Shown in pieces: positions 1 to 23,926 of a DNA stretch of 64,000 nucleotides. Both the position numbers and the translations under genes were made by a program. The notes beneath the pieces are model-generated. The model was not told where the DNA came from, made no database searches, and was given only the letters and a program-made list of their open reading frames with translations. Location: the IMG/VR virus record IMGVR_UViG_3300033150_002805, positions 12,847-76,846 of that record; one strand, 5' to 3'. The DNA is from a virus. Each line of letters starts with the position of its first letter. Position 1 is the stretch's first letter.

Positions 1-464
1 TGTTTCTCTCTTATTTTTCTATTTACCCTTTTTATTTCTTCAAAACTTCTACCCGTGATTATTGGAGCATCCTTTTCTGGTTTAATACCCGCTGTGATTA
101 CTCCATCATAATCATAGGCCCTTCTTAACTGAACTTTTCCCGATTGTTCTTTTCTATAAGAATCTGAATCTTCATGATGAGAAGAGAACTCTACAATTTG
201 AGCATCTGTTAATCCAGTAAATCTGTGTAATACTCTGGGTTTGATATGAACCGAATCTTTTGGTTTCATTATCCATTTTTTTCTTTCTACTTCCATTAGA
301 ACTTTACCACGAATAAGATAGAACGTTTCATCTTTTTTCTTATGATAATGAAGACTACAACGAAAACCCCTCTTCAATTTTAAGAGCTTTCCACAATAAT
401 CTTTCTGATTTTGAATCCAAATTTCTTCTCCCCAAATTTTTGAAACTTTTTTAATTTTATTCAT
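1..464 (-). CDS. Cupin (sugar-phosphate isomerase-like) domain fused to a probable HAD domain; runs off the window edge and is absent from the ORF track
   Basis: Manual translation from ATG at 464: MNKIKKVSKIWGEEIWIQNQKDYCGKLLKLKRGFRCSLHYHKKKDETFY...HRFTG...EFSSHHEDSDSYR, then AYDYDGVIT (DxD HAD motif I). The start overlaps the hldA stop (ATGAATAA). Confidence 0.75.
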   Translation of the reverse strand, partial: MNKIKKVSKIWGEEIWIQNQKDYCGKLLKLKRGFRCSLHYHKKKDETFYLIRGKVLMEVERKKWIMKPKDSVHIKPRVLHRFTGLTDAQIVEFSSHHEDSDSYRKEQSGKVQLRRAYDYDGVITAGIKPEKDAPIITGRSFEEIKRVNRKIREK

Positions 465-1236
465 GAATTAATTCTTTTAAAGAAACAACAGAAGTTCCGA
501 ATCGAGAAACAACAATTCCAGCAGCCTTATTAGCAAGTTTCATCATACTCTCAGGATTAGTAATTCCAACAGACAAACAATAAATTAAGACTGCCATTAC
601 TGTATCACCAGCACCCGTAACATCAATAACTTCCTTAGATATAACAGGAACATTCATTCTAAATTTTCCGTTTTCATAGTAATTTATTCCATTCTTACCT
701 TGGGTAATAAAAGCTTGAGGAAAATTCACATTATAAGCTTCCTCGTATTCCTTCCGATTAATTTTCAAAATCTGTGAACCTTTGAAAACTGATAAATCTT
801 TCTTTTTAGTATCAACTATAGTTGCTTTTCCACCATTAACAATTCCCTTATTATAATCAACAAAAGCTATCAAATCAAATTCAGAAGAGGGATATTCCAA
901 TCTTTCTAAATCTTGAGTTCGATAAACTTGGGGTTCATCGACTCTTAAAAGTTGTTGATTCTGAGCAACAAACCTTGTCTTAACCAAGGAAACACAATTC
1001 TTAGGAGTTCTAACTTCGAAGGAAAAATTTTTCAAAAAATTTTTATCTACTATTGTAAATACTACAGGCTGAATGCCCAAAGAGGATAAATTTTTTGCCA
1101 CGTTCAAAGCACCTCCCAAACGAATTTCTGTCTTTTTGATATCCAGAACTGGAACTGGAGCTTCAGGAGAAATTCTATCAACTTCTCCAAAACAATATTT
1201 ATCCAAAAAACTATCACCAACTATTGCAACTTTCAT
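457..1236 (-). CDS. hldA: D-glycero-D-manno-heptose-7-phosphate kinase-like (RfaE/HldE domain I, PfkB family)
   Basis: VGDSFLDKY, RISPEAPVPV, GGALNVA, KTRFVAQNQQLLRVD and DVTGAGDT motifs. Confidence 0.88.
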   Translation of the reverse strand: MKVAIVGDSFLDKYCFGEVDRISPEAPVPVLDIKKTEIRLGGALNVAKNLSSLGIQPVVFTIVDKNFLKNFSFEVRTPKNCVSLVKTRFVAQNQQLLRVDEPQVYRTQDLERLEYPSSEFDLIAFVDYNKGIVNGGKATIVDTKKKDLSVFKGSQILKINRKEYEEAYNVNFPQAFITQGKNGINYYENGKFRMNVPVISKEVIDVTGAGDTVMAVLIYCLSVGITNPESMMKLANKAAGIVVSRFGTSVVSLKELIHE

Positions 1237-2282
1237 GACAAATATCCTTTATTTTTAAACAAATCCTCTTTTTCAAAAGAACGACCCTTTATTTTTTTTA
1301 ACAACCGAGTTGTTGAATAGTTTGCTAATCTTGGAATAATCACTACCTTTCCACCATAATCTCTTACAAAATCATGTCCTATTACTGTTCGTTTAGTGTA
1401 ATCACCTCCTTTTACTAATACATCGGGTTTGATTCGTTTTATCAGACGTAAAGGATTACTTTCATTAAAAATCTCGACTTTATCAACATATTTTAAGGAC
1501 TCAAGAATTTTCTTTCGTTCTTCTTGATTATTTATCGGTTTTCGTTTTATTCTTGTTGCTGATGTATCAGAATTAAGACCAACTATCAAAATATCTCCTA
1601 ATTTTTTTGCTTCTTTCAACAAATAGATATGTCCCAAGGTTAATAAATCATAAACTCCATTTGTGAATACCACTAATTCTTTTTTATATACTGCACTATA
1701 AATATCTTTTCTTATTCCGCATTCAACTTCTGGATAACCAGATTTAATAAGTTTGAAACCTCTAGCTTCAAAGAATAAATTCAAACTTTCCTTTGTAAAA
1801 TAATGAAGATGTTCTCCAGTATCAAACTTAAAATGTTTCCAACCTCTTAATTTTTTTCCATCTGGAAGGATAGGTAAAGAAATGTAAACATAACGAGTCT
1901 TCTTAAATATCTTATCCAAAACTCTAAAATCTGGAATATGTTCCAAAACATCGCAAAAAAAGATTAGGTCATAAGATGTATGCCTAATCCCAGTATATTT
2001 TATTGGAAATTCACCAATATCAAAAGAATCAACTAAAACCCCTTTAGGAGAGAATTTAGTCAAAAAGTTGGCTCCTGCTCCATAATCCAAAACGATCTTT
2101 GGTTTCAACTCTTTAACAAAATTCCAGCGAACTTTATTTAGTTTTTTCGCTGTTTTCTCGTAATCTTTTGAAATTGTTTTCCAATATTCTTTATTATATC
2201 GAAACAAATTTTTCTCTTTTTCCATGGTGGGAATCTCTTTTAAGGTTAGAGAATCTCGGAAAGGTCTAATTCTCCAACCCAC
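1233..2282 (-). CDS. Class I SAM methyltransferase fused to heptose-1-phosphate adenylyltransferase (RfaE domain II/HldC); real start probably 2224
   Basis: N-terminal VLDYGAG and DVLEH; C-terminal FTNGVYDLLTLGH, GLNSD and KGGDY. Confidence 0.82.
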   Translation of the reverse strand: MGWRIRPFRDSLTLKEIPTMEKEKNLFRYNKEYWKTISKDYEKTAKKLNKVRWNFVKELKPKIVLDYGAGANFLTKFSPKGVLVDSFDIGEFPIKYTGIRHTSYDLIFFCDVLEHIPDFRVLDKIFKKTRYVYISLPILPDGKKLRGWKHFKFDTGEHLHYFTKESLNLFFEARGFKLIKSGYPEVECGIRKDIYSAVYKKELVVFTNGVYDLLTLGHIYLLKEAKKLGDILIVGLNSDTSATRIKRKPINNQEERKKILESLKYVDKVEIFNESNPLRLIKRIKPDVLVKGGDYTKRTVIGHDFVRDYGGKVVIIPRLANYSTTRLLKKIKGRSFEKEDLFKNKGYLS

Positions 2283-2400
2283 TTTCTTCTTTTTTTAATT
2301 CCTTGAGACCTTTCCATTTCATTGAGTTCAACGAATCTAACAAAGATAGATTCTCCCCCAATGAAAGACTCAAGGATGCTTAATCTATTGACTTTGAGAA

Positions 2401-4299
2401 TTACCAATCAGAACTTCCAGCGTATGCATACTGCCACATTCCAAAACCAGCATTTCCTCGCCAACTCACACCGAAATATATTTTCTTTCTCATGAAATCT
2501 TCCCAGGTATTTCCAGCATGAGTTTCAAATGTGATATCTTTTCTTAATTGTAGGATAATTGGTTTTACTATTCCATTGGTATCCATCACACACCAGAAGT
2601 TAGTTGGCACACGAGAAGTAACATATAAATCTAACAATCCTTTCATCACATTCGTTGCAAGTTTTGTACCTGATACCTCAGTTGGGAAATATTGACTATT
2701 CAAGATTTCTCTCGCCAAGAACATGTTATTAGGATGAACTACTAACAAGTTTGGCCTGATATCCATTTCATTTCCTTTATCATCTACATATTGCATCATT
2801 GTCTGAATAGCAGTCTGCAAAGCACTAAAACTGAAAGCTGTACCTGTTGCTATATTGGATTGAATTCCTGAACTACCAGATGAATGAGATGCTGAGAAGA
2901 AGGGCTGACCATCATAACAAGTGATATCCTTTCCCTCAAATAATCCAGTACCAGTAGATAAATTACCTTGACCCAAAAGGGTATAAACCAATCTACCCCA
3001 GAATCTTTTTGCCTTATCAGCTAAATCTCGAACTCTAATATTAATCTGCCCATAAAGCTCATCTTCCAATGCATCTTTATCAACTGCTATAGTGCTTTCC
3101 CAACTGTAGTTCTTGATGCTGAAATTGTGTTCGAGTAAAGCTTCAGGAACTCGTTCATCCTTCCATTCTTTTAGTTCAGGGACTCCACCTCTATTAACCT
3201 TTTATATTTCTATAAAAGCTAGACCATCTCATCCACTAAAAGTGGTCTGACGTATGGCCGTTGAGGATCTTCAATCTCTGATAATCTAAGATATCTAAAT
3301 CAGAATACGGTCTTGAATTTGATAAGGATAAACGCCTTTCACAAAAATCTTTTATGATAGCGATTTTCCCATTTAAATCAATAGTTTCAAATCTTTTACA
3401 AAATTTAAAACATCTTTTAAGACCTAATATACTTATAACATATTTTGGTTTATTCCGATTTTTATCAAATCGCTGGATATGATGAGGAATTTTTTTATTT
3501 TCAAAGAATCTTTGAATTGAATTTTTCCCAGTTTGAGAAGTAGTAAAGAATCTAATTCTAGGAATATACTTTGTTCGTTCACCCTTATAATTTCTTTTGA
3601 TTATAGTAGCACTACCATCTCCTTCCCAAAATCCCATCAACCAATATTTATCAATTTTCATTGTTGAAATCTTCTCTTTTTCTAAACTTGATTGAAAAGA
3701 TTCTTTATAATTTTGGCGAAGCTTTGGTTCTATTTTGAGACTCTCTTTTATAATCTCAGATTGATATTTTTTGATAACTAATTTGGGATTAATCAATTTA
3801 AGCCATCTGGAAACCTGTGGATCTCCTTTGATAAAAATAGAAGTTTGAATTCTATACCAAGATTTTCGTTTTCTAATCGTAAGATGAAATTTAATCTCAT
3901 TCAACTTAAGAAAATTGATATAACAATCAATAATCTTGGAATTAGTATTCACAAATCCTATTATCGGATTCCAATATTTTCTTTTCTGTTTCTCAAAAGT
4001 AAACCAACCTTCGGCATCAAATAATCCAGCGATATAAGATTGAATTTCCTGCTGATTGCCCGTTAAAATATCTTTCATATATTACCTAATTAGTTATGAA
4101 AGCTTTAGGGTTTTCCAGCATTTAGTCAGATTTTTCATGGTCAGGTGGTTTCTAACCATGCATATGGTTCAACGGATTTCCCTGATCTAATTAAAGTAGC
4201 AACTCTTTCCCATTCAGGAACGGTCATTTTCAGTTGTTTCATAAACTCCTTTCTCATTCCCGCAAGCAATAGATTAGGTATATCTGTTTTTGTTAACAT
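2401..4299 (-). CDS. Major capsid protein (Mu gpT-like), two exons 4154-4299 and 2401-3190, 311 aa after splicing
   Basis: Exon 1 MLTKTDIPNLLLAG...EPYAW joins exon 2 to give YAWLGGVPELKEW...NYSWESTIAVD...YDGQPFFSASH...GFGMWQYAY. 146+790=936 nt, in frame. Confidence 0.88.
3191..4153 (-). ncRNA. Group I self-splicing intron (963 nt) in the major capsid gene
   Basis: Exon 1 ends in U and the intron ends in G. The IGS CCACCUGACCAUG pairs with exon 1 CAUGGUU (U-G at the splice site) and with exon 2 AGGUGG (P10). Core elements: P AAAUGCUGGAAA, Q AAUCAGCAGG, R CUCAACGGCCAU, S GAUGAGAUGGUC. Confidence 0.9.
3236..4078 (-). CDS. Intron-encoded double-motif LAGLIDADG homing endonuclease
   Basis: YIAGLFDAEG and WLMGFWEGDG motifs; lies inside the intron. 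Confidence 0.9.
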   Translation of the reverse strand: MKDILTGNQQEIQSYIAGLFDAEGWFTFEKQKRKYWNPIIGFVNTNSKIIDCYINFLKLNEIKFHLTIRKRKSWYRIQTSIFIKGDPQVSRWLKLINPKLVIKKYQSEIIKESLKIEPKLRQNYKESFQSSLEKEKISTMKIDKYWLMGFWEGDGSATIIKRNYKGERTKYIPRIRFFTTSQTGKNSIQRFFENKKIPHHIQRFDKNRNKPKYVISILGLKRCFKFCKRFETIDLNGKIAIIKDFCERRLSLSNSRPYSDLDILDYQRLKILNGHTSDHF

Positions 4300-4305
4300 A
4301 GTTTA

Positions 4306-4833
4306 TTATCCACTCGAACAACTTGAACTGCAACTTGAGCTTGAACTCTCACTAGAACTAGACGAGCAAGAACTTGAAGAACTCCAAGATTCCTCTGTCC
4401 AAGTAGTTGAAGTAGCACAACAAATATCAACTTTTACTAAAGTAGAACTGATATAACCAACTACTACACCTACAAGTACTCCATTAGTAACTTGCTGTCT
4501 AAGTCCAACGGTATTATCATCAACTACAAATACCTGATGACCAACCCAAGATTGAGTAGCTCCAGAACATGGAAGCTGAAATACTCCGTTTCGGAATACT
4601 CTTACTCCTCTGGCTCCATCTGAGTCGGTATCTACGTCATCAGATAAAGAACGCTCAACAGCAATCCCAGCAAAAGTATAGCCAGCACTATCCGTTGCAG
4701 CATACAAATAACCATTGCTATTATTAGTAGTCACAATCGCTCCTTTATAAATATCTTCACCATTCTTAATCGGATAGTAGATTATATGTCCATCTTGACG
4801 TTTGTCTTCAAAGTCATCACTGAGTGCCATCAA
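4306..4833 (-). CDS. Capsid decoration/cement-like protein with a C-terminal Ser/Cys-rich tail
   Basis: Located between scaffold and MCP; IYKGAIV...FAGIAVE...GVF...VFVVDDNTV pattern; ends SWSSSSSCSSSSSESSSSSCSSSCSSG. Confidence 0.7.
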   Translation of the reverse strand: MMALSDDFEDKRQDGHIIYYPIKNGEDIYKGAIVTTNNSNGYLYAATDSAGYTFAGIAVERSLSDDVDTDSDGARGVRVFRNGVFQLPCSGATQSWVGHQVFVVDDNTVGLRQQVTNGVLVGVVVGYISSTLVKVDICCATSTTWTEESWSSSSSCSSSSSESSSSSCSSSCSSG

Positions 4834-4852
4834 TTATTAATTTGTTAATGAA

Positions 4853-7387
4853 TTAAAATGGAGTTGATTTTTCTTCCCTTTTTCCTTCTTTCTCTTTTTT
4901 AAATTCCTTATAAGCTTCTTTTTGAATATCTTCACTCAAACCCATTTTATCCATCTCTTCTTTTATTTCATCGGGAATTTTTTCTTCTTTCTTCTTATCT
5001 TCTTCTATAGTTCCGAATTCTTCTAAAGAGAAAACGGGACTTCTAGACTTCAAATACCTTTTTAAGGCTACATGGAGGTCGACCTTCCTTCCATCAGCTA
5101 ACTCAATTGGAGTATTTGAAGCTAAAAGAGGAAGTAGAAGTTCTTTTTCAACGGGAGTTACTTTCCCCTGTCTCAAAAGAGCTTCAAATGTCTTTTCAGC
5201 TTCGGCTAACTCAACTCCTTCTTTAGCCTTAGCTTCTTCGGATTCTTCTTCAGTTTTGGTCTCTTCAGTTTCAGTCTCTTCAGTTTTCACTTCCTCTTCT
5301 CCCTCGGTTTCCTCACCGACTTCTGAAGACTCAGTTTCTTCTGAAGTTTCTTCTGCTGAAGTTTCCTCTACCGAAGTTCTTTCCGAAGTATTTTCATCTT
5401 CATTTAATCTTATTTTCTTTTCAATTTTTTCTATTTTTTTTGTAATTTCATCAAGAGTTAAGGGTGGTTCTGCATTCACTATTGGAATTACCAGACTATC
5501 TTCAAATTCTTCTGATAAGGGAACAAAATTTCCTAATCCTTTAATGTAGGGTTCATTTACCAAGGCTGCATGAAATAAGGTTGGACCGACTTGTTCACCA
5601 GTATCTTTTTTAAGGTAATTTTCTACAAAGCTAGCAGAAATACCTTTAATAAGTCCTTTCTTGATTTTCTCAGCGATACTATCATCCTTAACATCAACCG
5701 TTGCTATCAGTTTATCTCCACCTTTAGATAATTCCAAATCAACTAATTCTCCGACATTCTTTGAAGGATCATCACCTGCTGGGTGCCCCAATGGAACAAA
5801 GACATTATCAATAACCTTATTTTTAAAATTCTTAAGCAATTTCTTCAATGTTTCTTTAGTTATTTTTAATATACCATCTCTTCCAGCTCCATGAAACCAA
5901 GTTCCTTCTCGTAACAATTCTTTTTTGAATTTGGTTCCTTCGCTTAATCGAATATCACCCGAATTGAAAACTTGATAAACTAATTTTTCATTTTCTGATA
6001 AGTTCTTCTTCTCTGGATAAGGGTAAGCTAAAGGTTGACCTACTCTTCTTAATTTATCAATCATAGTTCTGATTTTCTTAAGTTCAGTTAGTATCTTTTT
6101 ATCAGTTACCTTTTTGATCAATTCATCCAAAGAATCTTTGATTATGTCAATTGCTCCACCATCCTTCTTGATTCCTTTTGGATAACGATAAGGATAACCA
6201 TAAGGATAGCCGTAGGGATAACCATAGGGATAACCATAAGGATAGCCATAAGGATAGCCGTAGGGATACTTCCTATTTCTTTTTAATTTCTTCTCTACCT
6301 CTTTTGATTTCTCTTCTCCTTTCACTTTTCCTTTACAAATTTTCGCAGCCTCTTTAAAAGGAGTTCCTTTTTTCAACTCTTCTTTCATACAATCAGTATA
6401 AGCAGATTTTTCAAACTGCATTATTTTACCAGACTTTTTGACTTTTTTGCTACAGATTTTTGCTGCTTCCTTAAACGGAGTTCCTTTTTTGAGCTCTTTT
6501 TTCATACACTGAGTATAAGCTGATTTCTCAACATAAACTGGTTCAGCTAACTCTCTTTCTGTTCCTTCCTCCTCTTCATCTTCTTTATCATCATCGACTT
6601 CTTTCTCCTTTTCTTCTGGTTCTTCGGTTTCTTCCTCTTTTTCTTCCTCTTCTTCATCATTAGTTTCTTCCTCTTTCTCGGTTTCCTCTTCATCAGTTTT
6701 TTCATCAGTTTCCTCATCTTCTTCAGTTTCTATTTCATCAGTTTCTTCATCTATTTCATTTTTTTCTTCTGTTTCTTCCTCTTCCATCTCTTCAGTTTCC
6801 TCTTCGACTTCTTCTGGATTTCCTTCTTCAACCTCACTTAACTCTTCAAAATCTTCTTTTAAATTTTTCTCCATAATTTTTTCAGCCATATCAATGGCCT
6901 TTTTAATATACCATCGAATGACTTTAGCTTCTGGATTTGCACCTTGAGGTACCAATGAAACTTCCTCAATGCACAAATCCTTAATTAATCTTAACTTCAA
7001 ATCAGGAAATAGTTCGACCTTTTCACCATAATTCACTTGTCCTTTTACTGACAAGGAATTGAGTTCTCCTGACTTGACTTTTTCAATTATTGAAGGTTTT
7101 GATATTTCAACCTTAATCCAAATTCTACCTTTATCAAAATGACAATCGAGAACTTTTCCGATTATCTCCTTGGTATGATTCAAACAAAACTTTCCATTTC
7201 TTTTAAAATCTTCAACGCATTTTTTCAAAGCAAAATCTGTAATTATATCATTTTGTAAATCAAAATCATTCGCTGCTGCAAATCCTTCAAGAATAAATTT
7301 TCCTCCTTTTTCTTCTCTTTCATTTAGAAAAAGTGGAAAATTAAATTCTATTCTTGGATAATACAATAATTTATTCATAAGGGTCAA
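4853..7387 (-). CDS. Prohead protease/scaffold: HK97-type protease domain, acidic linker, YPYG repeats, Mu I-like protease/scaffold domain
   Basis: LEGFAA..DLQNDII..LNH..LSVKG..EEVSLV..GANPEA; second domain LGHP..KGISASF..LFHAALVNEPYIKGL. Confidence 0.8.
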   Translation of the reverse strand: MTLMNKLLYYPRIEFNFPLFLNEREEKGGKFILEGFAAANDFDLQNDIITDFALKKCVEDFKRNGKFCLNHTKEIIGKVLDCHFDKGRIWIKVEISKPSIIEKVKSGELNSLSVKGQVNYGEKVELFPDLKLRLIKDLCIEEVSLVPQGANPEAKVIRWYIKKAIDMAEKIMEKNLKEDFEELSEVEEGNPEEVEEETEEMEEEETEEKNEIDEETDEIETEEDEETDEKTDEEETEKEEETNDEEEEEKEEETEEPEEKEKEVDDDKEDEEEEGTERELAEPVYVEKSAYTQCMKKELKKGTPFKEAAKICSKKVKKSGKIMQFEKSAYTDCMKEELKKGTPFKEAAKICKGKVKGEEKSKEVEKKLKRNRKYPYGYPYGYPYGYPYGYPYGYPYGYPYRYPKGIKKDGGAIDIIKDSLDELIKKVTDKKILTELKKIRTMIDKLRRVGQPLAYPYPEKKNLSENEKLVYQVFNSGDIRLSEGTKFKKELLREGTWFHGAGRDGILKITKETLKKLLKNFKNKVIDNVFVPLGHPAGDDPSKNVGELVDLELSKGGDKLIATVDVKDDSIAEKIKKGLIKGISASFVENYLKKDTGEQVGPTLFHAALVNEPYIKGLGNFVPLSEEFEDSLVIPIVNAEPPLTLDEITKKIEKIEKKIRLNEDENTSERTSVEETSAEETSEETESSEVGEETEGEEEVKTEETETEETKTEEESEEAKAKEGVELAEAEKTFEALLRQGKVTPVEKELLLPLLASNTPIELADGRKVDLHVALKRYLKSRSPVFSLEEFGTIEEDKKKEEKIPDEIKEEMDKMGLSEDIQKEAYKEFKKEKEGKREEKSTPF
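6182..6269 (-). repeat. 12-nt tandem repeat encoding (YPYG)n
   Basis: Repeated ggataaccata/ggatagccgta units; the protein reads KYPYGYPYGYPYGYPYGYPYGYPYGYPYRYP. Confidence 0.9.
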
Positions 7388-7391
7388 GAGT

Positions 7392-10300
7392 TTATTTTGG
7401 TCTAGGCAATTTGGTCTCTTTGAAAACCCAAAAATTGCTTGTGTTTTCTCTTTCCAAGACCCATAAACCTTTTAATTTTTCGCCTTTAAACTCAAATTTT
7501 TTAAAAGAATCAGAGTCTTCATAAACAACTGCCTTTCCTTTGTCTATTATCTTAATATATGAACTCGTAGCTTTCGTAGGATTGGCATCCTCTATTCCTG
7601 GAGGCAATTTTGCCAATTCTTCCTTTGACATCTTTGCCCTTTCATTCTTTGGTGGCAAATACTGAGAAACTTCCATCCATTCTTTATATTTACAGGGTTT
7701 CCAAAGAGCGGTTACTTCCTTATTCTTCAAGGGATTCTGATTAAGAACAAAATGCATCAAGCCTGGCTGATCGGGGAAATTAAATCTTAGATCCCAATGT
7801 TCTCTAGAGACTCCCGCCCTAATAACCCTTTGCCCCCGCCACCAATGTCGTTGCAAAACAAAGGGAACTATCCTTATCTTCTTAACCTGTAAAAGTTCAA
7901 TCATAATCATTTTCATATCATTAGGCCGTTTTTCCAACCAAGTTATGGCATCTTTCAACCATTCTTTCTTAAATGGATGAAGTTCTTTAAACTCTTGGAG
8001 TGCTTTCTCAACCCTTTTGACTTTTTCTGGATAAGGAGTTCGAAGCCAGAAAGTTAAAATCTGCTGGGACAAAATATAGCGATAAGCAGCTTTTGCCCAA
8101 TTTGCACCTGGGTTCAATTTTTTCTCAACGAGAACTTTTCCAAGTTTCTCAACCAATTTATCTCGCACCTCTATTCTTTTTTTCTCATCATCGAATTTCC
8201 AATATTGAAATTCTTTAGGAACTTTTTTTCTTATCTTTTCTGGTAAAGCAGAAACTTCTTTTGGAGGAATCCATTTCTTATCAACAGCCGCATCTGAGAT
8301 CACATAAGGAGTTTCATCTAACGGCTTAACGAGGAACCACGGTGCCTCTTCCCTAAATTTTGTTTCCCTTGCTGGAGGTATGACTTCTTGTTTTTCTATT
8401 TTGCCTCGAAATTCAGCAGGTCTTAGTTGTCTGAAAAACCATCTGCCCTTAAGTTTACCGCCAGAAAAGAAATACTCATGAAAATAAGGTTTTTGAGCAC
8501 CATATTGGCAATAACCTTTATCAATAATATGGAAAACTCCTGGTGCCGTTTTTGTTGCCCCTGGTGAACCCACTGGAACTATCCCTTCGACATTCAACCA
8601 CTCAATAGGCTCAGCACTTTTCCGCATCGCAGCCAATTCAGCATATTTTTTCTTATACCCAGGTTTAATCCCAGGTCTTAACTTTGGCACTCCTTTTTTC
8701 CAGTCAATTTTCCAAATATCTTTCGAATCTAGTTCTTTTGCTTGTTTCATTGTAGTCACTGGTTCTTTAATCGCTCCCTTCACCATATCTGCAATAGTCC
8801 AACCCAACAAATAATTATTCTGTTTAATTCGAAGATCACTATGACAAGACTTTAATCTATAATGATGCTGAATAACATAAGGATATTTCTTTTCCACTTT
8901 CGGGTATTCCATATATGGATCGTGTTGTTTCTCAACTAATTCTTTAGACACTTTCTCATAAAGTTTCTTTGACCATTTTTTCATCTTTTGAGGTTCAAAT
9001 TCATGTTTCATCCGTTTCTCCTTCACCCTCTTTTTTATTTCGTTATAAATAATCCTTGCTAAACTAATAACCTGTTTCTCTGTGTATTTGAATTTGTTTC
9101 CTTCTTTGATTCTAGAATACCAAGCATTCACTATTCGCCAATCATCGGCTAATTGCTTATTATTCGGTATCTTGGGATTATATTTGATGTCCTTGATTTT
9201 TTCTAACTCAGAAAGATAAATAATCTTTCCTTCTTTCGTAATCTCCTTCTCCTGTAAACAATAATTCTTCTTTGCTCGCTCAATCGCTTCCTTAACTGTA
9301 TCGGCTTTCCTATTTACCTTACGCATCACTCTTGGTGCCCAAAGACTTATTCTCCAAGTATCATCTTTCAAATCATGTTCGACATTCAGAGTTTCACCCT
9401 CAATCTCTAGAACATCACCCTTATCAGCTTTTAAGGAAGTAGAGAAAGTTCTACCAGAACGATGATAGAAAACATTGCCAAGCTCTTCTGTTTTCATTTT
9501 ATATTTGCCAGGTTCTAAACCGAAATAATAGTTATATACCCCTTTCACTTTAGTCTCTTTAATATCAAGAACTTTGCCATAAATTGCTGTTGAATTGTGA
9601 AATTTTACCATTCCACTCCGTATACCTTTGAGATTGAATTTGAAGTCTTTTGTCTTGCAAACATTGCCTTCTGAACCTGGTAGACGCCTTAAAAACTCTG
9701 TATGCTTTCTTAATTTCTCTCTGTTCTTCGAAAGAAGATAAGGAGCAAAATTCAATTTTATCTTAATATTTGGGATTTTCCAAGTTCTTTGTTTGAAGGG
9801 CAAAGATTCAAGTAATTTCAATCTTTTTTCAAAAGGTTCATTATGAATATCAACTTTGAAATAGGGCATATCATAAACATTAGCAACGACATGAGAATCA
9901 TCAGGTATTCCTTTCTGATGAATATAACCAGCAATTACTTCTCTTGGTTTATGGTCATTATCTTCCCACCATTCCAATTCAGCCATCAATACACAATCTT
10001 CTTTAGTTAACTGTTTTACTTCTTTAACCAAAGTTGGTAGCCTATGAGTTATTACTTCACCATCTTCTGAAAAGATTTTCACTTCTTCTCCTTTTTTATG
10101 AATTTCTGCATTAAACCCATCATACTTCTTGGTCGAATAGAAAGGATATTTCCCCATATTCTCCATAACTTCTATGAACAAATCAATACTTTGTCGTTTT
10201 TCTGGATAATATCCTCTGGTTGGTTTTAGGGGCAAGAAAAATCTGAATAATTTTATCTTGTCTTCTCTTGCTGAAACCTCAGCATCCTTGATTGCTGAAG

Positions 10301-12092
10301 TAACTCGTGGTTTTTCTCTTAATTGTTTTTCGAAATCAGACAACCTAAGCATCCTATCCTTACTTCTTAACATCACTAAATTATAAAGTGGAATAGCATT
10401 TGTGAAAGGAGTTGAAAACTTATCATAAACAAAATGCAATCTTCTTCTAATCCACCAAGGGACGCTTCTAGCGATTCTGAATTCAATAATTCTTCTCATA
10501 TCAAAACTCAACCACTCTGGTAGCAATATATCCAAATCGCCTCTAGTTGAACCCTGGTTCACTATTCCTCCTGTTAAATATATCAAAGGTCTTTGAATTA
10601 TGAAATCTTTAAAATAAGGAAGGATTTCTTCCAAAATCATAAGTTTTCCCATTCTTTTTCCCGAAGTGTAAATTGGTGCCGAACCTTCACTCAAATTAAT
10701 GACAATGTTATCAGTAGCTATTATAATTGGAACTTTAGTTAACTCTCGAATTTTAGTTAACAGAACATCATCTCCATAACTCAATGGTTCTTTGCCTAAA
10801 TGAGTAACTACTATTCTTTTAACTTTGCCTGGCAAATACCAATTTTTTAATTGATTTATCAAACTACTATGCCCGTATGGTTCACCCTTTTTACCTTTCC
10901 TTCTTGCCAAGGTCCTGGTAAGAGAGGAGCCATCAATAATTGCCAAATCTAAATCTTTGACATACTTCTCTCGATCTCCAGAATGCCAGCCCAAAATATC
11001 GGTTGCTTGCAAAACTCTCTTATCTCCCATTTCAATTAGGAAAACATGCATTTTGGCTCGAATGGAATGTAAGACAGGAATTGGAGTTATCTTAAAAGGG
11101 CCAAGGTTAAAAGTCTTATAAGATTCGTATTTTGTCCTCGCATCTATATTGAAATCTTTATAAAGATTTGGAACTTCTTTTTCAGTTTCTTTGGAAACTA
11201 TAATAGCCATATCCTTCAGACCCAAAAGATGATCAGGATGAGAATGACTAACCAAAATATAATCAGGTTTGATTTTCTCTAAATTTCCTTGATTTATTTT
11301 TCCATAATCCACTAGCAGTCTCTTACCCTTATACTCATATAAGATTGAAGTATGAAATCTGTGTCCAGGACCTTCTTCTTCAATCAAACCTTTGGTTCCA
11401 TAAAATGTTACTTTATAACCCTCTTTGCTAAACCTCTCCTTGAATTTTTTTGCTTCCTTATCCAAATCGTCATCAAAAGGTTCATATTCCAATTTTCTCT
11501 TTAATATTTCATCTTTAAGAAGGATATGATAGTTAATGCAATCTTCTTTTGAAGCTGCCGATTGTTGCCAAATCTTATGGATTTCTCTGTGAAGTTTCAA
11601 AAGTTCTTCATCACTCAATTTTGCTGGATCACCAAAGTTCATACTCTTAAAAGTTACATTTTCTAACCAAACCTGAGCTCCTTTAGGTCTTAAAATTTCT
11701 TTGGGTGGATCGAATTTTGAAATGAGTTCTATTGGATAATAATATAAGAATTTTTCTTTTGACCACCATCGTTTTCTTTCATCTTCTGAAATTTGATGAA
11801 ATTTTCTCAACTCTTTAAACTTTCTTAGATTAATTTTTCTACCTTCCTTTATTTCAATAATTCCTAAAGCTTTATTATCTTCAATCAAATAAACTGGAAT
11901 CCCGATGTATTTAGTGAATTTCCTCGAGCTAACAATTGCTTTTTTCTTTCCTTTCCAAATCAAAGTTCCATGAGGTTTAACCAAGATTTTTCCAGGCAAC
12001 AAAACAGTTCTCCCAGGTTGCAAAAGCTGAGGAATATCTGACGGAACTAATAATTTTTTTAACTTTTTAGTCATCTTTTCTTGTTTTAGCAT
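7392..12092 (-). CDS. Multidomain protein: ASCH-like + MBL-fold hydrolase + nucleotidyltransferase + ATP-dependent DNA ligase + two LigD 3'-phosphoesterase-like domains; probable start 12074
   Basis: PHGTLIWKGKKKAIV (ASCH-like); SHSHPDH (MBL); LTGG..GDLDILL (NTase); KYDG, VYDM, SEGNVCK (ligase); YVIQHH..HSDLRI and FVLQRH..HWDLRF, IIDKG..KLKGLWVL (LigD PE). Confidence 0.78.
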   Translation of the reverse strand: MLKQEKMTKKLKKLLVPSDIPQLLQPGRTVLLPGKILVKPHGTLIWKGKKKAIVSSRKFTKYIGIPVYLIEDNKALGIIEIKEGRKINLRKFKELRKFHQISEDERKRWWSKEKFLYYYPIELISKFDPPKEILRPKGAQVWLENVTFKSMNFGDPAKLSDEELLKLHREIHKIWQQSAASKEDCINYHILLKDEILKRKLEYEPFDDDLDKEAKKFKERFSKEGYKVTFYGTKGLIEEEGPGHRFHTSILYEYKGKRLLVDYGKINQGNLEKIKPDYILVSHSHPDHLLGLKDMAIIVSKETEKEVPNLYKDFNIDARTKYESYKTFNLGPFKITPIPVLHSIRAKMHVFLIEMGDKRVLQATDILGWHSGDREKYVKDLDLAIIDGSSLTRTLARRKGKKGEPYGHSSLINQLKNWYLPGKVKRIVVTHLGKEPLSYGDDVLLTKIRELTKVPIIIATDNIVINLSEGSAPIYTSGKRMGKLMILEEILPYFKDFIIQRPLIYLTGGIVNQGSTRGDLDILLPEWLSFDMRRIIEFRIARSVPWWIRRRLHFVYDKFSTPFTNAIPLYNLVMLRSKDRMLRLSDFEKQLREKPRVTSAIKDAEVSAREDKIKLFRFFLPLKPTRGYYPEKRQSIDLFIEVMENMGKYPFYSTKKYDGFNAEIHKKGEEVKIFSEDGEVITHRLPTLVKEVKQLTKEDCVLMAELEWWEDNDHKPREVIAGYIHQKGIPDDSHVVANVYDMPYFKVDIHNEPFEKRLKLLESLPFKQRTWKIPNIKIKLNFAPYLLSKNREKLRKHTEFLRRLPGSEGNVCKTKDFKFNLKGIRSGMVKFHNSTAIYGKVLDIKETKVKGVYNYYFGLEPGKYKMKTEELGNVFYHRSGRTFSTSLKADKGDVLEIEGETLNVEHDLKDDTWRISLWAPRVMRKVNRKADTVKEAIERAKKNYCLQEKEITKEGKIIYLSELEKIKDIKYNPKIPNNKQLADDWRIVNAWYSRIKEGNKFKYTEKQVISLARIIYNEIKKRVKEKRMKHEFEPQKMKKWSKKLYEKVSKELVEKQHDPYMEYPKVEKKYPYVIQHHYRLKSCHSDLRIKQNNYLLGWTIADMVKGAIKEPVTTMKQAKELDSKDIWKIDWKKGVPKLRPGIKPGYKKKYAELAAMRKSAEPIEWLNVEGIVPVGSPGATKTAPGVFHIIDKGYCQYGAQKPYFHEYFFSGGKLKGRWFFRQLRPAEFRGKIEKQEVIPPARETKFREEAPWFLVKPLDETPYVISDAAVDKKWIPPKEVSALPEKIRKKVPKEFQYWKFDDEKKRIEVRDKLVEKLGKVLVEKKLNPGANWAKAAYRYILSQQILTFWLRTPYPEKVKRVEKALQEFKELHPFKKEWLKDAITWLEKRPNDMKMIMIELLQVKKIRIVPFVLQRHWWRGQRVIRAGVSREHWDLRFNFPDQPGLMHFVLNQNPLKNKEVTALWKPCKYKEWMEVSQYLPPKNERAKMSKEELAKLPPGIEDANPTKATSSYIKIIDKGKAVVYEDSDSFKKFEFKGEKLKGLWVLERENTSNFWVFKETKLPRPK

Positions 12093-12186
12093 CTAAAGGC
12101 CAACCGCACTTGCTACAGTGGCTATTTTCAGCTTTATTTTTTGTTCCACACTTAGGACAAATTTTTTTGCTTTCGGTAGATGCCAT
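12067..12186 (-). CDS. 39-aa zinc-ribbon protein (not in ORF track)
   Basis: MASTESKKICPKCGTKNKAENSHCSKCGWPLDAKTRKDD; its stop overlaps the ATG of the ligase gene. Confidence 0.7.
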   Translation of the reverse strand: MASTESKKICPKCGTKNKAENSHCSKCGWPLDAKTRKDD

Positions 12187-13642
12187 TGGTAAATTTTTCA
12201 CCTAATTTATAACATTTGGCTTCTAAATCAGGCTCATATTTTAAATTCAATAATTTTTCTTTTAAGACCTTTGGGGTTCTTGGTGCATTGATATTCAGTT
12301 CATCAGCTCTCTTCTTTTTCCCTTTTTCAAAAGCCAAAAGGGGTTTTTTTTCTTTTTCAACTTTCTCTTTCATCGCCCATTTTAATCTCAATGCTTTTGC
12401 TGTTTCTGTAACAACTTCATTAACAAAACCATCTGGTAATTTCTCTCCAGTTCTCATTATTTGATTGAATACCTCTCTTAAGAATGCTTGAGAAGCATCA
12501 GCTAGTTTTTCAAACCGAATTTCTGGATAAGATTGAGTTCCAAAATTCCAATCTATCAAAGGAGCTATCGCATAAGTATTCAGAGTGGCTTCCATTTGTT
12601 TCATAATTGATTGAATAGCTAAATCAACATATTGAGAGGCAGAAGTGCCTTTTCCATAAGGATAAGCATACTTGATTTGGTCTAAAATCTGAACCAAGGC
12701 TGACTTTGTCATTTCCCTGTTGTGATGATCAATCAATGGTAATGGATCAAAACCTTTTTCACCACCCCTTTGGATTTCCAATTCAATCCCAGGTGGCAAA
12801 GTTATTCTAGAATTTATTCCCAATGTATCCACAACCTCTTCTGCTTTTTTCCTTTCAGCCGAAGTGAGAGTTTGATTAACTTTTAAAATTTTTAAACCCA
12901 AAGTATCTATCTCAGCTTTTTTATGAGAAATATAATAAAGTTTATGTTTTTTGTCATAATGATAAAATGCAGTTTTCAAAATGGATTCTCCATAAAGCCA
13001 ATGTTTCTCTTTTTGAAAAGTGAAAAGCATGCACTTTTCTGGAGGAATATTAACATCAACAGAATACGATCCAAAAGTTGCAGTTTGATGAGCACCAGCA
13101 AATCCACCATGCCGATCAGCTTTTAATTCTATAGTTTGAGCGTCTCTCGGAGCTAATTTCTTCCATCCAACTTTGCCTTTATATTTTCCCTCTTCAATAA
13201 TTCTAGCAACTTTTTCATAGAGCCGAAATCCTTCAAAAATAGCTCTTGTCATATCAGAAATGATAAAAGGAAGTGGTGTAGTCATACCACCTAAATGAGG
13301 GGGTGATAAAAAGATAGTTTCAATAAAATCTCTTTCTCCTCTATCGTTTTCAGCGGGAAGAATATGAAAAGGAGTTGAAACTATTGGAAGTGTTAAAAGT
13401 CTAACTATTGCTTGAACCTCTCCATCGTTTCTCTGCATTTCAATGTAGGTTTGAGGTCCAAGATCGTCTGGATTTTCTTCAGTATCATAAGCTCCAATAA
13501 CTCCTTCACGAGCAATTCCCAACTCTCTAGTGAATTCTTCAAGAGTCAAAACTTTTCTCTTCTCTTCTTTTTCTACCTTTGATTCCTTTTTAGATTTTAA
13601 TATAAAATCAAAGAAAGACACGGTTATTGAACCTAGGTTCAA
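12152..13642 (-). CDS. Portal protein (DUF935/Mu gp29-like)
   Basis: YIEMQRNDGEVQA, WKKLAPR, LYGESILK, IAPLIDWNFG..YPEIRF; first gene of the head module. Confidence 0.8.
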   Translation of the reverse strand: MNLGSITVSFFDFILKSKKESKVEKEEKRKVLTLEEFTRELGIAREGVIGAYDTEENPDDLGPQTYIEMQRNDGEVQAIVRLLTLPIVSTPFHILPAENDRGERDFIETIFLSPPHLGGMTTPLPFIISDMTRAIFEGFRLYEKVARIIEEGKYKGKVGWKKLAPRDAQTIELKADRHGGFAGAHQTATFGSYSVDVNIPPEKCMLFTFQKEKHWLYGESILKTAFYHYDKKHKLYYISHKKAEIDTLGLKILKVNQTLTSAERKKAEEVVDTLGINSRITLPPGIELEIQRGGEKGFDPLPLIDHHNREMTKSALVQILDQIKYAYPYGKGTSASQYVDLAIQSIMKQMEATLNTYAIAPLIDWNFGTQSYPEIRFEKLADASQAFLREVFNQIMRTGEKLPDGFVNEVVTETAKALRLKWAMKEKVEKEKKPLLAFEKGKKKRADELNINAPRTPKVLKEKLLNLKYEPDLEAKCYKLGEKFTNGIYRKQKNLS

Positions 13643-13664
13643 AATCCATAGGTGCTTAGCAAGG

Positions 13665-14204
13665 TTATAAATTAATTATTAGACCGTTAATATTATAGCT
13701 TCCAGAAAAATTATAATGGAAATCAGTACCAGCAGCGGTAAAACCGAGAGTATCTGATGAAACATCAAAAACTAAATTTTCAGTGCTATAAGTAGTAGAC
13801 CAATCCGAAGGATAAACTACCGAATAAGGTTTCCACCAAGGTTTTTCATAATGATCACCTTCATGGATAATTGCTTCAATCTTCACAACGGAAGTCTCAC
13901 GGGCAAGCTTGTCGACTTTTTGTCTTTCTTCAATCAAATCAAGCCTACCCTGTTTAAAATCCTCTAAATCTTTAGTAAGAATTTTTATTTTTTCTTGTAA
14001 TCTTTTAACTTTTTCTTTCAAATTCTCTCTTTTTCTCAATGTCTCCAAAATTATTTTTTTAATTTTTTCTCTTTTCTCTTTTTCGATGTCTTTAGAGGCT
14101 TCATCGAAAGCCTTTTTCACCAAACTTTTATCCATATTTTTCAACCTTGGGTCGCACCTATGGATTCTTTCTTCAATATAACAAGTAAGTAAGATAAAGG
14201 TCAA
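13665..14204 (-). CDS. Hypothetical coiled-coil protein (probable start about 14135, MDKSLV)
   Basis: ORF with coding-like composition downstream of a TTGACC promoter-like site. Confidence 0.55.
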   Translation of the reverse strand: MTFILLTCYIEERIHRCDPRLKNMDKSLVKKAFDEASKDIEKEKREKIKKIILETLRKRENLKEKVKRLQEKIKILTKDLEDFKQGRLDLIEERQKVDKLARETSVVKIEAIIHEGDHYEKPWWKPYSVVYPSDWSTTYSTENLVFDVSSDTLGFTAAGTDFHYNFSGSYNINGLIINL

Positions 14205-14380
14205 GTGTTCTCAATCCATTATGAATATTAAATAGAGAACCATAAGTTCAAAGCGGATTTGGAATTTTGATATCAGGTGAAAGAAAGAGGAGAGTTCTCT
14301 TTTTTCTCTTTCTCTTTTTTTTTCTATAATACACATTCTTCCATATCTCTTGCTCCTATCTGTACTCTCTCTCATTTGAG

Positions 14381-14417
14381 TTATCCACTTGACAGGGGTC
14401 TTTGGGTATGATAATAT
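14381..14417 (+). promoter_or_regulatory. Sigma70-type promoter overlapping a DnaA-box-like site, at the strand divergence
   Basis: TTATCCAC-TTGACA(14389)-17 bp-TAATAT with an extended TG. Confidence 0.7.
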
Positions 14418-14640
14418 AAAATAAAGGTCAATAATAATTAAAAACAAATAAAAATATGATTAAGCACTTAACATGGGCGATGATCCAAAAGAGAAAAAGA
14501 AAAGAGAAAATTAAAAAGATATTGTTTGGAATTATTGGATGGCTGGGTTTGTTTTTGATTGCTTGTTTGTTGCTCCCGTTTGTTTGGTTTCTGTTTGTTT
14601 TAATGTTTTAAAGGTCGTAAAAAAAAATCTTTTAAAAACT

Positions 14641-14883
14641 ATGAATCCACGCATTAACAACTATTATTTTGTAGGCTTTCATTTTGAATCAAATAGAGGA
14701 TACATTACTCCTGAATATATGGTCATTTTTGCTGAAAGAAAAAAAGACGCTGAAAATAAAGCTAATATGATGAAAAAAAGTTTTGAAAAATCAGGAAGAG
14801 AAATTAGAGTAATAACTTTTTATCGTAATAAATACATAAAAGAGGCTGAAGAATTGGTGAAAGAAAAGAAATTTATATCTTAA
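14641..14883 (+). CDS. Hypothetical early protein (start MNPRINN)
   Basis: ORF; AAGGTCG motif and A-rich leader upstream of 14641. Confidence 0.5.
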   Translation: MNPRINNYYFVGFHFESNRGYITPEYMVIFAERKKDAENKANMMKKSFEKSGREIRVITFYRNKYIKEAEELVKEKKFIS

Positions 14884-15006
14884 TTGATCCTTTTAGGTTT
14901 TTTGCTTGCTTGCTTTATTGTCCAGGTATTTTAAAGCAAGCATCAAAAGATCTAAAAGTTCATTAACAATCTTTAAATATGGCGAGGGTTTAAAGATTTA
15001 GAGAAA

Positions 15007-15612
15007 ATGAAAAATTATCCAAATCAAATTAGGCAAGAAGCCTACAAGTTATTTAACAATACTTTTAATTGTTTAGATTTTGAACTATTGAAAAAAGCAA
15101 TCGGAGAAGATACTATAATTGATTATATTGAAAAACCAAGCGAGGAAATTTTAAGAAAGGAAGCGAAAGATAATTTTGATGAGAAAGAATGGGAAGAAAA
15201 AACAGAAGAAGAAAAAGAGGAAGCAACGCTGACATTCTTTGAGGAAAGCGAACACTACCCCATGTGGTCTACAGTCTTCGAAGCGAAGGATGAGTTTATA
15301 TCTCGAAAGATAATGAGAGGAATTGATGAGTTATATAATTTAGGAATCGGGGTAATTGCTCCTACTGAGTACACTAACGCTTGTTTATTTATCGCTGGTG
15401 CTGGTTATGATTTTTATGATGCTCATTGGATACCTTTATTTATCCACTGGGGTTGGATTGATGAAGAAAAAATGAAAGAAGAAGAAGAAAGAAACAAAAT
15501 AAAATTAACTGACTGGAAAGAGTTTGGCGAAACACTTGAAAAATTGACAGAGAACAGAGACAAAACAATTAAAAGACACTCCAAGGGATTACTAAAAGCC
15601 CTAAAACTTTAA
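15007..15612 (+). CDS. Hypothetical phage protein
   Basis: 201-aa ORF with YPMW and GAGYDFYDAHWIPL motifs. Confidence 0.65.
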   Translation: MKNYPNQIRQEAYKLFNNTFNCLDFELLKKAIGEDTIIDYIEKPSEEILRKEAKDNFDEKEWEEKTEEEKEEATLTFFEESEHYPMWSTVFEAKDEFISRKIMRGIDELYNLGIGVIAPTEYTNACLFIAGAGYDFYDAHWIPLFIHWGWIDEEKMKEEEERNKIKLTDWKEFGETLEKLTENRDKTIKRHSKGLLKALKL

Positions 15613-23371: not shown

Positions 23372-23926
23372 ATGGAAAAAGAAAAGGAAACACGACGAGG
23401 ACGAAAAAGGGGATATAAATATTCAGAGGAAACCAAAAAGAAGATGTCTATTAAAAAAATAGGCAATAAAAATAAGTTAGGTAAAACTGGTTATAAATTA
23501 TCAGAAGAAACGAAGAGAAAAATATCAGAAGCAAGGAGGGGAATAAAATTGTCAGAAGAAACTCGTAAAAAAATGAGCAAAACTCGGAAAGGAAGAACAG
23601 GAGAAAGAGCCAATAGTTGGAAAGGCGGGATTAGTCAAAACAAAGAATATTTGAGTTGGCTTAAAAATAAAAGGAATAGAATGCCAAAAATTGGAAGTCA
23701 CACTTTTGGAGAATGGGAATTATTGAAAAAACAATATGGATATAGATGCCCCGCTTGTGGAAGAAAAGAACCTGAAATTAAATTAACCGAAGACCACATT
23801 ATTCCATTAAGCAAAGGTGGTTCGGATTATATTGAAAATATTCAGCCATTATGTAAAAGTTGTAATTTTAGAAAACATACTAAAATTATTAAATATGAAT
23901 TTGAAAAAAGAAAAGAAAACAATTAA
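23372..23926 (+). CDS. NUMOD3-HNH endonuclease
   Basis: SEETKxKxS repeats; CPACG..DHIIPLSKGG..NIQPLCKSCN. Confidence 0.88.
   Translation: MEKEKETRRGRKRGYKYSEETKKKMSIKKIGNKNKLGKTGYKLSEETKRKISEARRGIKLSEETRKKMSKTRKGRTGERANSWKGGISQNKEYLSWLKNKRNRMPKIGSHTFGEWELLKKQYGYRCPACGRKEPEIKLTEDHIIPLSKGGSDYIENIQPLCKSCNFRKHTKIIKYEFEKRKENN

Follow-up and report, generated by a model that had tools for sequence, protein, structure and literature searches.

To our knowledge, experimental evidence for glycosylated phage particles is confined to a small number of mycobacteriophages, and the glycans on mycobacteriophage virions change their recognition by antibodies. By the accounts given in PMC12363180 and PMC12691614, virion glycosylation by phage genes was shown experimentally in the mycobacteriophages Che8, Corndog and Myrna (Freeman et al. 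2023). In bacteria, the autotransporter heptosyltransferases (BAHT), as in the TibC-TibA and Aah-AIDA-I pairs (PDB 4RAP/4RB4), take heptose from ADP-heptose and attach it densely to serine hydroxyls of a partner whose gene lies close by (PMC4358343). Here we describe a cluster of sugar-related genes in the late operon of an uncultured phage, the 76,846-bp IMG/VR virus record IMGVR_UViG_3300033150_002805. The cluster lies beside genes for virion proteins with polyserine (poly-Ser) tracts and encodes two predicted glycosyltransferases for which TibC is among the closest structural matches. The stretch analysed, the window, is 64,000 nucleotides long and covers bases 12847-76846 of the record. 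Based on gene context, predicted folds and co-occurrence across related phages, we assign a probability of about 0.62 to the reading that a phage-encoded system O-glycosylates the phage's own virion proteins on these tracts, i.e. that the phage probably sugar-coats its own particle.

Results

Sugar genes and poly-Ser virion proteins share a late operon

We established by computation which genes are present and in what order, how their products are predicted to fold and whether they are soluble, that the tracts are confined to virion genes, and how far tracts and enzymes co-occur across phage lineages. The record ends carry a terminal repeat of 114 bp and the genome is closed. The minus-strand operon that includes the major capsid gene runs on into the 12.8 kb left of the window, and 17 sugar-related genes occupy genome positions 1223-15128 on a single strand (~14 kb, ~18% of the genome), separated by overlaps or gaps of a few bases. 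This block sits between the capsid gene and two large poly-Ser proteins with the connector genes. The head part is transcribed in the order portal, 1566-aa multi-enzyme protein, protease-scaffold fusion, decoration protein, split capsid gene and sugar genes; there follow the LamG/poly-Ser protein, a 1016-aa protein, the connectors, the tail tube, the tape-measure region, Dit and a 1760-aa distal tail protein (Table 1). A sequence-only reading of the window had placed sugar genes directly downstream of the capsid gene, on the same strand and with overlapping stop and start codons, and this arrangement holds, though the capsid gene is split. It had also predicted glycosyltransferases just outside the window; six glycosyltransferase-like genes (two GT9-fold, two GT8-like, a GT2 and a rhamnosyltransferase-like gene) do lie in the same operon, on the same strand, flanked by the capsid gene on one side and by the connector and tail genes on the other. 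The window ends, which were expected to be neighbours if the genome were circularly permuted, are not directly adjacent, and 12.8 kb with more sugar genes separate them.

The poly-Ser tracts comprise 838 Ser in total and are confined to exactly five open reading frames (ORFs), all in virion modules, in agreement with the five structural proteins named before; no sixth poly-Ser ORF of at least 50 aa occurs in any frame of the whole 76.8-kb genome. The decoration protein and the tail tube protein carry C-terminal tails (residues 147-175, 21 Ser, encoded at 4309-4395, and residues 325-357, 25 Ser, encoded at 55252-55350, respectively). The 1760-aa distal tail protein has two internal tracts (residues 362-540 and 715-799, encoded at 49703-50239 and 48926-49180) with 215 Ser. 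The longest tract, roughly (S8F)n, spans residues 419-977 of the 1016-aa protein (459 Ser, encoded at 58921-60597) and is enriched in Cys towards the C-terminus; this protein has no Pfam match, and no relatives of its N-terminal domain were found. In the LamG protein, whose frame stays open across the circularised junction, a LamG-type lectin domain is followed by a tract of 143 residues (118 Ser, encoded at 63387-63815) and a C-terminal domain. Phe recurs at about every ninth residue of the Ser tracts. All six Ser codons are mixed in the tracts and Tandem Repeats Finder reports only short imperfect repeats, so the tracts are not microsatellites. Every tract is read in the same frame as the recognised structural domain that precedes it, so the Ser frame is the coding frame.

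Table 1. Features of the late operon and other genes discussed. Coordinates refer to the window; those marked L001 are in genome numbering and cover the 12.8 kb to its left (minus strand).
Feature	Coordinates	Strand	Match or remark
Decoration (cement-like) protein, 175 aa	4306-4833	-	Phage_cement_2, 23.6 bits (cut-off 24)
Tail tube protein, 357 aa	55249-56322	-	Phage_tube_2 E 5e-13
Distal tail protein, 1760 aa	46040-51322	-	Sialidase-like CBM and YQBQ-like, both slightly under cut-offs
1016-aa protein, ~55% poly-Ser	58801-61851	-	Between sugar cluster and head-tail connector genes
LamG/poly-Ser protein, ~1004 aa	Genome base 943 across terminal repeat to window 61812 (window part 61812-64000)	-	Laminin_G_3 E 4e-14, N-terminal part
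GT9-like unk365, 365 aa	L001 10736-11833	-	AlphaFold model, structural match
Compact GT9-like unk261, 261 aa	L001 2143-2928	-	Predicted model, structural match
Fusion of methyltransferase and HldC-like heptose-1-phosphate adenylyltransferase, 349 aa	1233-2282	-	Methyltransf_23 residues 57-180; TIGR02199 residues 200-332
HldA-like heptose-7-phosphate kinase, 259 aa	457-1236	-	TIGR02198; PfkB match too
Cupin-HAD-like fusion, 220 aa	L001 12648-13310 (window part 3-464, N-terminal 154 aa)	-	Cupin_2, PF01050
HldD-like epimerase	L001 11817-12623	-	TIGR02197 E 4e-62
LicD	L001 10143-10724	-	
GT2	L001 9464-10156	-	
Methyltransferase-LicD fusion	L001 8350-9477	-	
RmlD-like reductase	L001 7431-8441	-	
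Sugar-1-phosphate nucleotidyltransferase with APH/choline-kinase-type domain	L001 5747-7498	-	
Methyltransferase with PIG-L deacetylase	L001 4583-5746	-	
Rhamnosyltransferase-like	L001 3792-4586	-	
GT8-like B	L001 2932-3798	-	
GT8-like A	L001 1223-2164	-	
Major capsid gene, Mu gpT-like	2401-4299 (exon 1 4299-4153, exon 2 3189-2401)	-	Mu-like_gpT E 8.5e-31
Protease-scaffold fusion, 844 aa	4853-7387	-	
1566-aa protein	7392-12092	-	
Portal	12152-13642	-	
Dit gene	51692-52486	-	SPP1_Dit; precedes 1760-aa tail protein
HNH/NUMOD3 endonuclease	23372-23926		
TnpB/Cas12f-like OrfB_IS605, 370 aa	31822-32934	+	E 1.5e-24
Free-standing LAGLIDADG ORF	33460-34284		
714-aa protein	42202-44346	+	LAGLIDADG domain, residues 481-532

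unk365 and unk261 are predicted GT9-like proteins

Two proteins of the cluster, which we call unk365 and unk261, have no match to the Pfam GT9 family PF01075 even at E 10, and unk365 has no match in the PDB (searched by single sequence and by profile), Pfam, NCBIfam or 50,697 GenBank phage records, where its family is absent altogether. Family searches return nothing for unk261 either. The fold of unk365 is revealed solely by structure prediction (AlphaFold, predicted local distance difference test (pLDDT) 88.9). With this model, Foldseek returns WaaF, TibC, 3tov and WaaC at E 8e-11 to 1e-7, and VIA-align gives Z scores of 23.5 for 3tov (root-mean-square deviation 2.9, 275 residues aligned), 20.6 for TibC, 20.5 for WaaF and 18.8 for WaaC; next in rank are GT9-like NDH-PSI subunits (Z ~16.7), and the remaining GT-B folds do not exceed Z 11.8. 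As modelled, unk365 is a GT-B fold with GT9 enzymes as its nearest solved relatives. The unk261 model (pLDDT 91.7) is a compact GT-B whose best 20 Foldseek matches are all TibC chains, while the best match of its C-lobe is WaaF (Z 13.7); hhalign detects a weak similarity between unk261 and the profile of unk365 (E 6e-5).

In GT9-fold enzymes the catalytic Asp lies in the loop after the first strand (WaaC D13, TibC D110; PMC4358343). Invariant residues follow the corresponding strands in both phage proteins, P51-G52-D53 after strand 42-46 in unk365 and G30-D31 after strand 20-25 in unk261, their putative equivalence to the catalytic Asp being one of motif and position only. Four Cys are conserved in the C-lobe of unk365 (C288, C294, C303, C317), with a spacing unlike that of the TibC finger. 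Only ~40 residues precede the first Rossmann strand of unk365, of which residues 1-23 are disordered, and unk261 opens straight into the Rossmann fold. Searched in all six reading frames at E 10, the genome yields nothing that matches the BAHT model TIGR04414. The Aah/TibC-type enzyme that the sequence-only reading had expected is thus not represented by a family member: the phage proteins have neither a TIGR04414 match nor the N-terminal beta-barrel.

With 60-76% identity kept across more than 400 metagenomic clusters, unk365 is better conserved than any other cassette protein. When 1.84 billion representatives were searched with the family profile, 2,261 clusters (at 50% identity) were recovered, of which 876 reached E 1e-30 or better. 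Distant members frequently carry fused methyltransferase and GT-A domains. Such distant members, found with the family profile at E 1e-66 to 1e-112, pass the PF01075 cut-off (for example P0176 with 64.5 bits and P0134 with 47.8 bits). A few sources label family members as ADP-heptose:LPS (lipopolysaccharide) heptosyltransferase. The family is nearly absent from cells, with three small contigs of metagenome-assembled genomes (MAGs) among 185,579 species genomes.

Poly-Ser ORFs accompany unk365 across related phages

The co-occurrence of poly-Ser proteins with unk365 was analysed in 32 viral contigs with an unk365 homologue and in 78 control loci (1.17 Mb) with a related capsid and no unk365. 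A poly-Ser ORF was defined by at least 16 Ser in 20 residues and an ORF length of at least 80 aa, and at loci with the enzyme it was counted within 10 kb of the homologue. Such an ORF is present in 22 of the 32 viral loci, with homologues from 76% down to 35% identity and including lineages in which unk365 is only 35-44% identical, and in all three MAG loci. Overall, 25 of 35 loci with the enzyme are positive, against none of the 78 capsid-related loci without it. The co-occurrence test that the sequence-only reading had proposed, there for poly-Ser structural genes with hldA and hldC, is strongly positive with unk365 as the partner. The hld genes are missing from most related phages; outside the clade closest to this phage they were seen in a single distant contig. 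The conserved core around unk365 consists of a methyltransferase, unk365, unk261 and two GT8-like genes; the methyltransferase half alone, without HldC, is the conserved neighbour in other phages. In loci L108 and L113 poly-Ser occurs with unk365 though no GT8-like or unk261 homologue was detected.

The decoration and tube proteins follow the same distribution. Decoration homologues with a Ser tail are found solely in cassette phages (this phage, L084/85 and L087/88), and none occurs in ~18 cassette-less loci. In the cassette phage L117/L119 a tube protein of 68% identity has a Ser tail and the distal tail protein has a 163-residue tract; the tube relative in L118, a contig that ends before the head module, lacks Ser tails. 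In many loci, for example L097, the methyltransferase, unk365, unk261 and GT8-like genes begin immediately behind the end of a giant poly-Ser ORF. The single ORFs upstream of the cassette on the plus strand in L092, L096, L097 and L101 have 2,300 to more than 3,090 aa, with ~1,300-1,450 residues of poly-Ser/Cys/Phe tracts alternating with globular modules of ~150 residues, and each stops immediately in front of the methyltransferase and GT9-like genes.

Candidate genes for the donor sugar

HldA-, HldC- and HldD-like proteins are encoded next to unk365 and the capsid gene. Each has a clear best hidden Markov model (HMM) family and each scores under the NCBI equivalog cut-off: 199.5 bits for HldA (E 7e-59, cut-off 345, next family ribokinase with 42 bits), 163.6 bits for the HldC-like half (E 2e-48, cut-off 181.5) and 210.2 bits for HldD (cut-off 274.6). 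Within these limits the methyltransferase-HldC and HldA assignments made from the sequence alone stand. Stop and start codons overlap by 4 nt (1233-1236) between these two genes and by 8 nt (457-464) between HldA and the cupin fusion.

The cupin-HAD fusion, which had been given a GmhB role, is borne out in its cupin half: PF01050 matches above cut-off, and the best PDB match is 7zvm, a small mannose-6-phosphate isomerase (E 1e-5). The evidence for the HAD half, and hence for GmhB, is weak; it consists of a DYDGV motif and of nearest Atlas clusters that are small HAD phosphatases at 0.80-0.83, under the reliability level of the tool. Residues 105-220 have no Pfam, NCBIfam or PDB sequence match. 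A GmhA gene, for which the sequence-only reading had proposed a search beyond the window ends, is not present in its SIS-type form, as SIS_2 has no match anywhere in the genome at E 1. The cupin, which resembles phosphomannose isomerase (PMI), may stand in for GmhA; this possibility follows from the chemistry, since no SIS protein is encoded.

The phage-borne ADP-heptose set differs among close relatives (L084/L085 compared with L082/L083/L087). Some carry HldA and HldC only and others also the cupin-HAD fusion and HldD, which suggests that the phages top up different steps of the host heptose pathway.

Other enzymes of the cluster

GlyE extends O-glycans on the pneumococcal serine-rich repeat protein. 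It is the best solved match of the GT8-like family (PDB entry 5gvv, E 6e-4; PMC7826918). Among solved structures, glycogenin and the Skp1 galactosyltransferase are near matches of this family's profile as well. The best NCBIfam match of the LicD module is a cholinephosphotransferase, so the decoration may be phosphocholine. All 15 cluster enzymes checked lack a transmembrane helix and are soluble, and no flippase, polymerase or ligase is present with them, which fits direct cytoplasmic transfer to a soluble acceptor. No cluster protein matches Glycos_transf_1/GT4. Lanthipeptide-like crosslinking of Ser and Cys was considered and set aside, as the Pfam matches of the cluster, to which this check was confined, include no dehydratase- or cyclase-like gene.

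Neighbouring head and early genes

A 963-nt insert (3190-4152) splits the capsid gene behind codon 49 and holds a 280-aa double-LAGLIDADG endonuclease ORF (3236-4078). Both exons were placed by tblastn with the intact major capsid protein of the relative L002, and the gene is uninterrupted in L002 and L003. An intein was rejected because the endonuclease ORF is in another frame than the exons; the insert is therefore an intron, and it has no group I intron match in Rfam. The plus-strand 714-aa protein contains an embedded LAGLIDADG domain, possibly an intein inside a lysis enzyme, ahead of a C-terminal peptidoglycan-binding domain. With the further LAGLIDADG and HNH/NUMOD3 ORFs listed in Table 1, the genome is rich in homing endonucleases. 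A TnpB/Cas12f-like gene lies in the early region.

The protease-scaffold fusion contains a long acidic stretch rich in E and T, a duplicated 'KSAYTxCMKxELKKGTPFKEAAKIC' unit and a seven-fold 'YPYG' run. Between this gene and the portal gene, the usual place of minor head proteins, lies the 1566-aa protein, in which a metallo-beta-lactamase-type HxHxDH motif is discernible by eye; the versions in relatives are longer (1885 aa in L002, more than 2285 aa in L003).

Discussion

The data suggest a mechanism in which the supply of ADP-heptose would be raised or created in the cytoplasm of the infected cell. The route to the donor would comprise the PMI-like cupin as sedoheptulose-7-phosphate isomerase and the HldA-like, HAD-like phosphatase, HldC-like and HldD-like activities. 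The soluble, GT9-fold unk365 would put the first sugar, a heptose, on serine hydroxyls of the tracts. The glycan could be extended by unk261 and the two GT8-like proteins, joined in this phage by the GT2 and rhamnosyltransferase-like proteins, and decorated by the methyltransferase and here also by the LicD/nucleotidyltransferase-kinase module, possibly with phosphocholine. Transfer would take place in the cytoplasm, where virions assemble, and would clothe the decoration protein, the tail tube, the distal tail protein and the two large proteins in a mucin-like glycan brush. Glycosylation is probably cytoplasmic and probably starts with heptose on serine. We infer the acceptor, the first sugar and the order of the enzymes, as well as a biological role, which may lie in shielding, adhesion or stabilisation; the heptose may be methylated, as the sequence-only reading supposed. 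In more general terms we see about an even chance that the cassette represents a large, phage-restricted and undescribed protein-glycosylation system, in which a GT9-derived family, a methyltransferase, a compact GT9-like protein and GT8-like proteins hyperglycosylate mucin-like poly-Ser tracts on decoration, tube and fibre proteins, and in which some phages carry the full ADP-heptose pathway with a PMI-type cupin replacing GmhA.

Several points weigh against virion glycosylation. GT9 enzymes normally act on the LPS core, and poly-serine can serve as a plain flexible linker. Outside Pfam GT9 and TIGR04414 and without the TibC barrel, unk365 does not allow a protein acceptor to be read from homology. 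The closest relatives L082 and L083 keep the enzymes while their decoration protein is tail-less, with contigs that stop before the tail genes. No poly-Ser lies within reach in 10 of the 32 loci, which include truncated fragments and four distant (35%) homologues. The co-occurring loci are related and several are duplicates, so that the counts are not independent events. Because most cassette phages carry no hld genes, the heptose donor is less certain outside this clade. The whole argument is drawn from gene context and folds, from which we infer the glycan on the virion. A search of the literature found no paper on poly-Ser acceptors with GT9-like enzymes in phages.

The tracts might be glycosylated by the cluster in another way, with a Ser-linked sugar that is not heptose or is not added by a GT9-like enzyme. 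A GT8-like protein (of glycogenin or GlyE type) or the GT2 protein would then start the chain and the GT9-like proteins would add heptose further out. This is possible given that the GT8-like profile has its closest solved matches among enzymes working on proteins or on glycans bound to them, that the hld genes are missing from most cassette phages and that unk365 is no BAHT member by sequence. We nevertheless consider it unlikely: unk365 is the best conserved protein of the cassette and stays with poly-Ser in the two loci where GT8-like proteins and unk261 went undetected, and TibC shows that a GT9-fold enzyme can heptosylate serine directly (PMC4358343).

It also seems improbable to us that the tracts are unmodified flexible spacers and that the target of the cluster is the host envelope, in its LPS core, teichoic acid or capsule, for instance to prevent superinfection or the adhesion of progeny to debris. 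To be sure, GT9, GT8, LicD, RmlD-like and HldA/C/D proteins are classical envelope-glycan enzymes, WaaC and WaaF are likewise soluble or peripheral, and secreted bacterial enzymes contain poly-serine linkers without proven modification. However, action on the envelope would leave unexplained the association of poly-Ser with the enzyme (25/35 versus 0/78), the Ser tails found on decoration and tube proteins of cassette phages only and the position of the operon inside the late structural module; moreover, the cluster has no membrane, flippase or ligase component and the family is almost absent from cellular genomes. The sugars could finally be destined for the phage DNA. Phage clusters with HAD/APH-like, cytidylyltransferase and GT-B proteins, some of them near structural genes, put one or two heptoses on 5-hydroxymethylcytosine (5hmC) and have been reconstituted in E. 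coli (bioRxiv 10.1101/2023.12.21.572611), and the present genome has a nucleotidyltransferase-APH kinase fusion together with GT-A and GT-B enzymes. DNA hypermodification with heptose-containing glycans, as in these 5hmC sugar pathways, was rejected as the main explanation and appears very improbable, as a six-frame search at E 1 found no TET/JBP (PF12851), C5-methyltransferase (PF00145) or ThyA-type hydroxymethylase (PF00303) gene. In addition, the methylases of the genome are only of the N6/N4 and Dam type, the top structural matches of unk365 are GT9 enzymes and not T4 beta-GT, and the poly-Ser association would be left without an explanation.

If the virion proteins are indeed glycosylated on their Ser tracts, virion glycosylation would be common among uncultured phages, the enzyme clusters numbering in the hundreds to thousands, and the cassette, as a general route to a glycan brush on the particle, would give bacterial serine hyper-heptosylation its first counterpart in viruses. 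The acceptor would be simple and portable, a Ser run that can be appended to any surface protein, and some lineages would bring the donor pathway along. A coat of this kind would have consequences for the stability of the particle, its adhesion to mucus or biofilm matrix, receptor masking and immune recognition, and the pair of compact enzyme and tag could be of use for protein glycoengineering in bacteria. With a cupin where GmhA is expected, this well-studied pathway seems to have undergone a non-orthologous replacement. The genome described here is particularly complete in that it is closed and combines 17 sugar genes with five acceptor candidates, among them the two most abundant exposed proteins, decoration and tube.

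As for known systems, the cassette would work most like the TibC/Aah heptosyltransferases and the glycosylation of serine-rich repeat protein (SRRP) adhesins, and it resembles in kind the virion glycosylation of mycobacteriophages (PMC12363180). With the donor pathway for ADP-L-glycero-beta-D-manno-heptose (GmhA, HldA/HldE, GmhB, HldC, HldD) it shares HldA-, HldC- and HldD-like genes adjacent in one operon. It differs in having a PMI-like cupin and a small HAD-like domain at the isomerase and phosphatase steps and no SIS-type GmhA, and in an HldC fused to a methyltransferase rather than to HldA, with scores under the equivalog cut-offs. SRRP glycosylation, in which GtfA/GtfB are followed by GT8 enzymes such as GlyE (5GVV), likewise proceeds stepwise in the cytoplasm with soluble enzymes on long Ser-rich tracts. 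Unlike it, the phage cluster has neither the initiating GT4 pair GtfA/GtfB nor an accessory Sec system, its tracts are near-pure Ser with periodic Phe or Cys instead of SxSx dipeptide repeats, and its product would be a virion instead of a secreted adhesin.

The BAHT enzymes are, like unk365 and unk261, soluble cytoplasmic proteins of GT9 fold, and TibC is among the top structural matches of both. The four-Cys iron finger of TibC (C339, C342, C358, C370) lies roughly where C288, C294, C303 and C317 are found in unk365, the spacing being different and the likeness one of region rather than of individual residues. In contrast to TibC, the phage enzymes lack the N-terminal beta-barrel (residues 1-97) and TIGR04414 membership; the proposed acceptor is a disordered poly-Ser tract of the virion and not the beta-helix repeat of a secreted adhesin, and the phage enzyme comes with a methyltransferase, a second GT9-like and two GT8-like proteins. 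In mycobacteriophages, as far as the published summaries describe them, the phage's own glycosyltransferases modify its own capsid and tail proteins and thereby alter the virion surface, a situation that the present phage would share on the evidence of its genes alone. By the same descriptions, those phages have actinobacterial hosts and, as far as reported, other glycosyltransferase families, and they are not known to have poly-Ser acceptors of tens to hundreds of residues, an ADP-heptose pathway or a GT9-like enzyme. Phage self-glycosylation is as a kind already known, and the specific enzyme-acceptor pair proposed here would be new.

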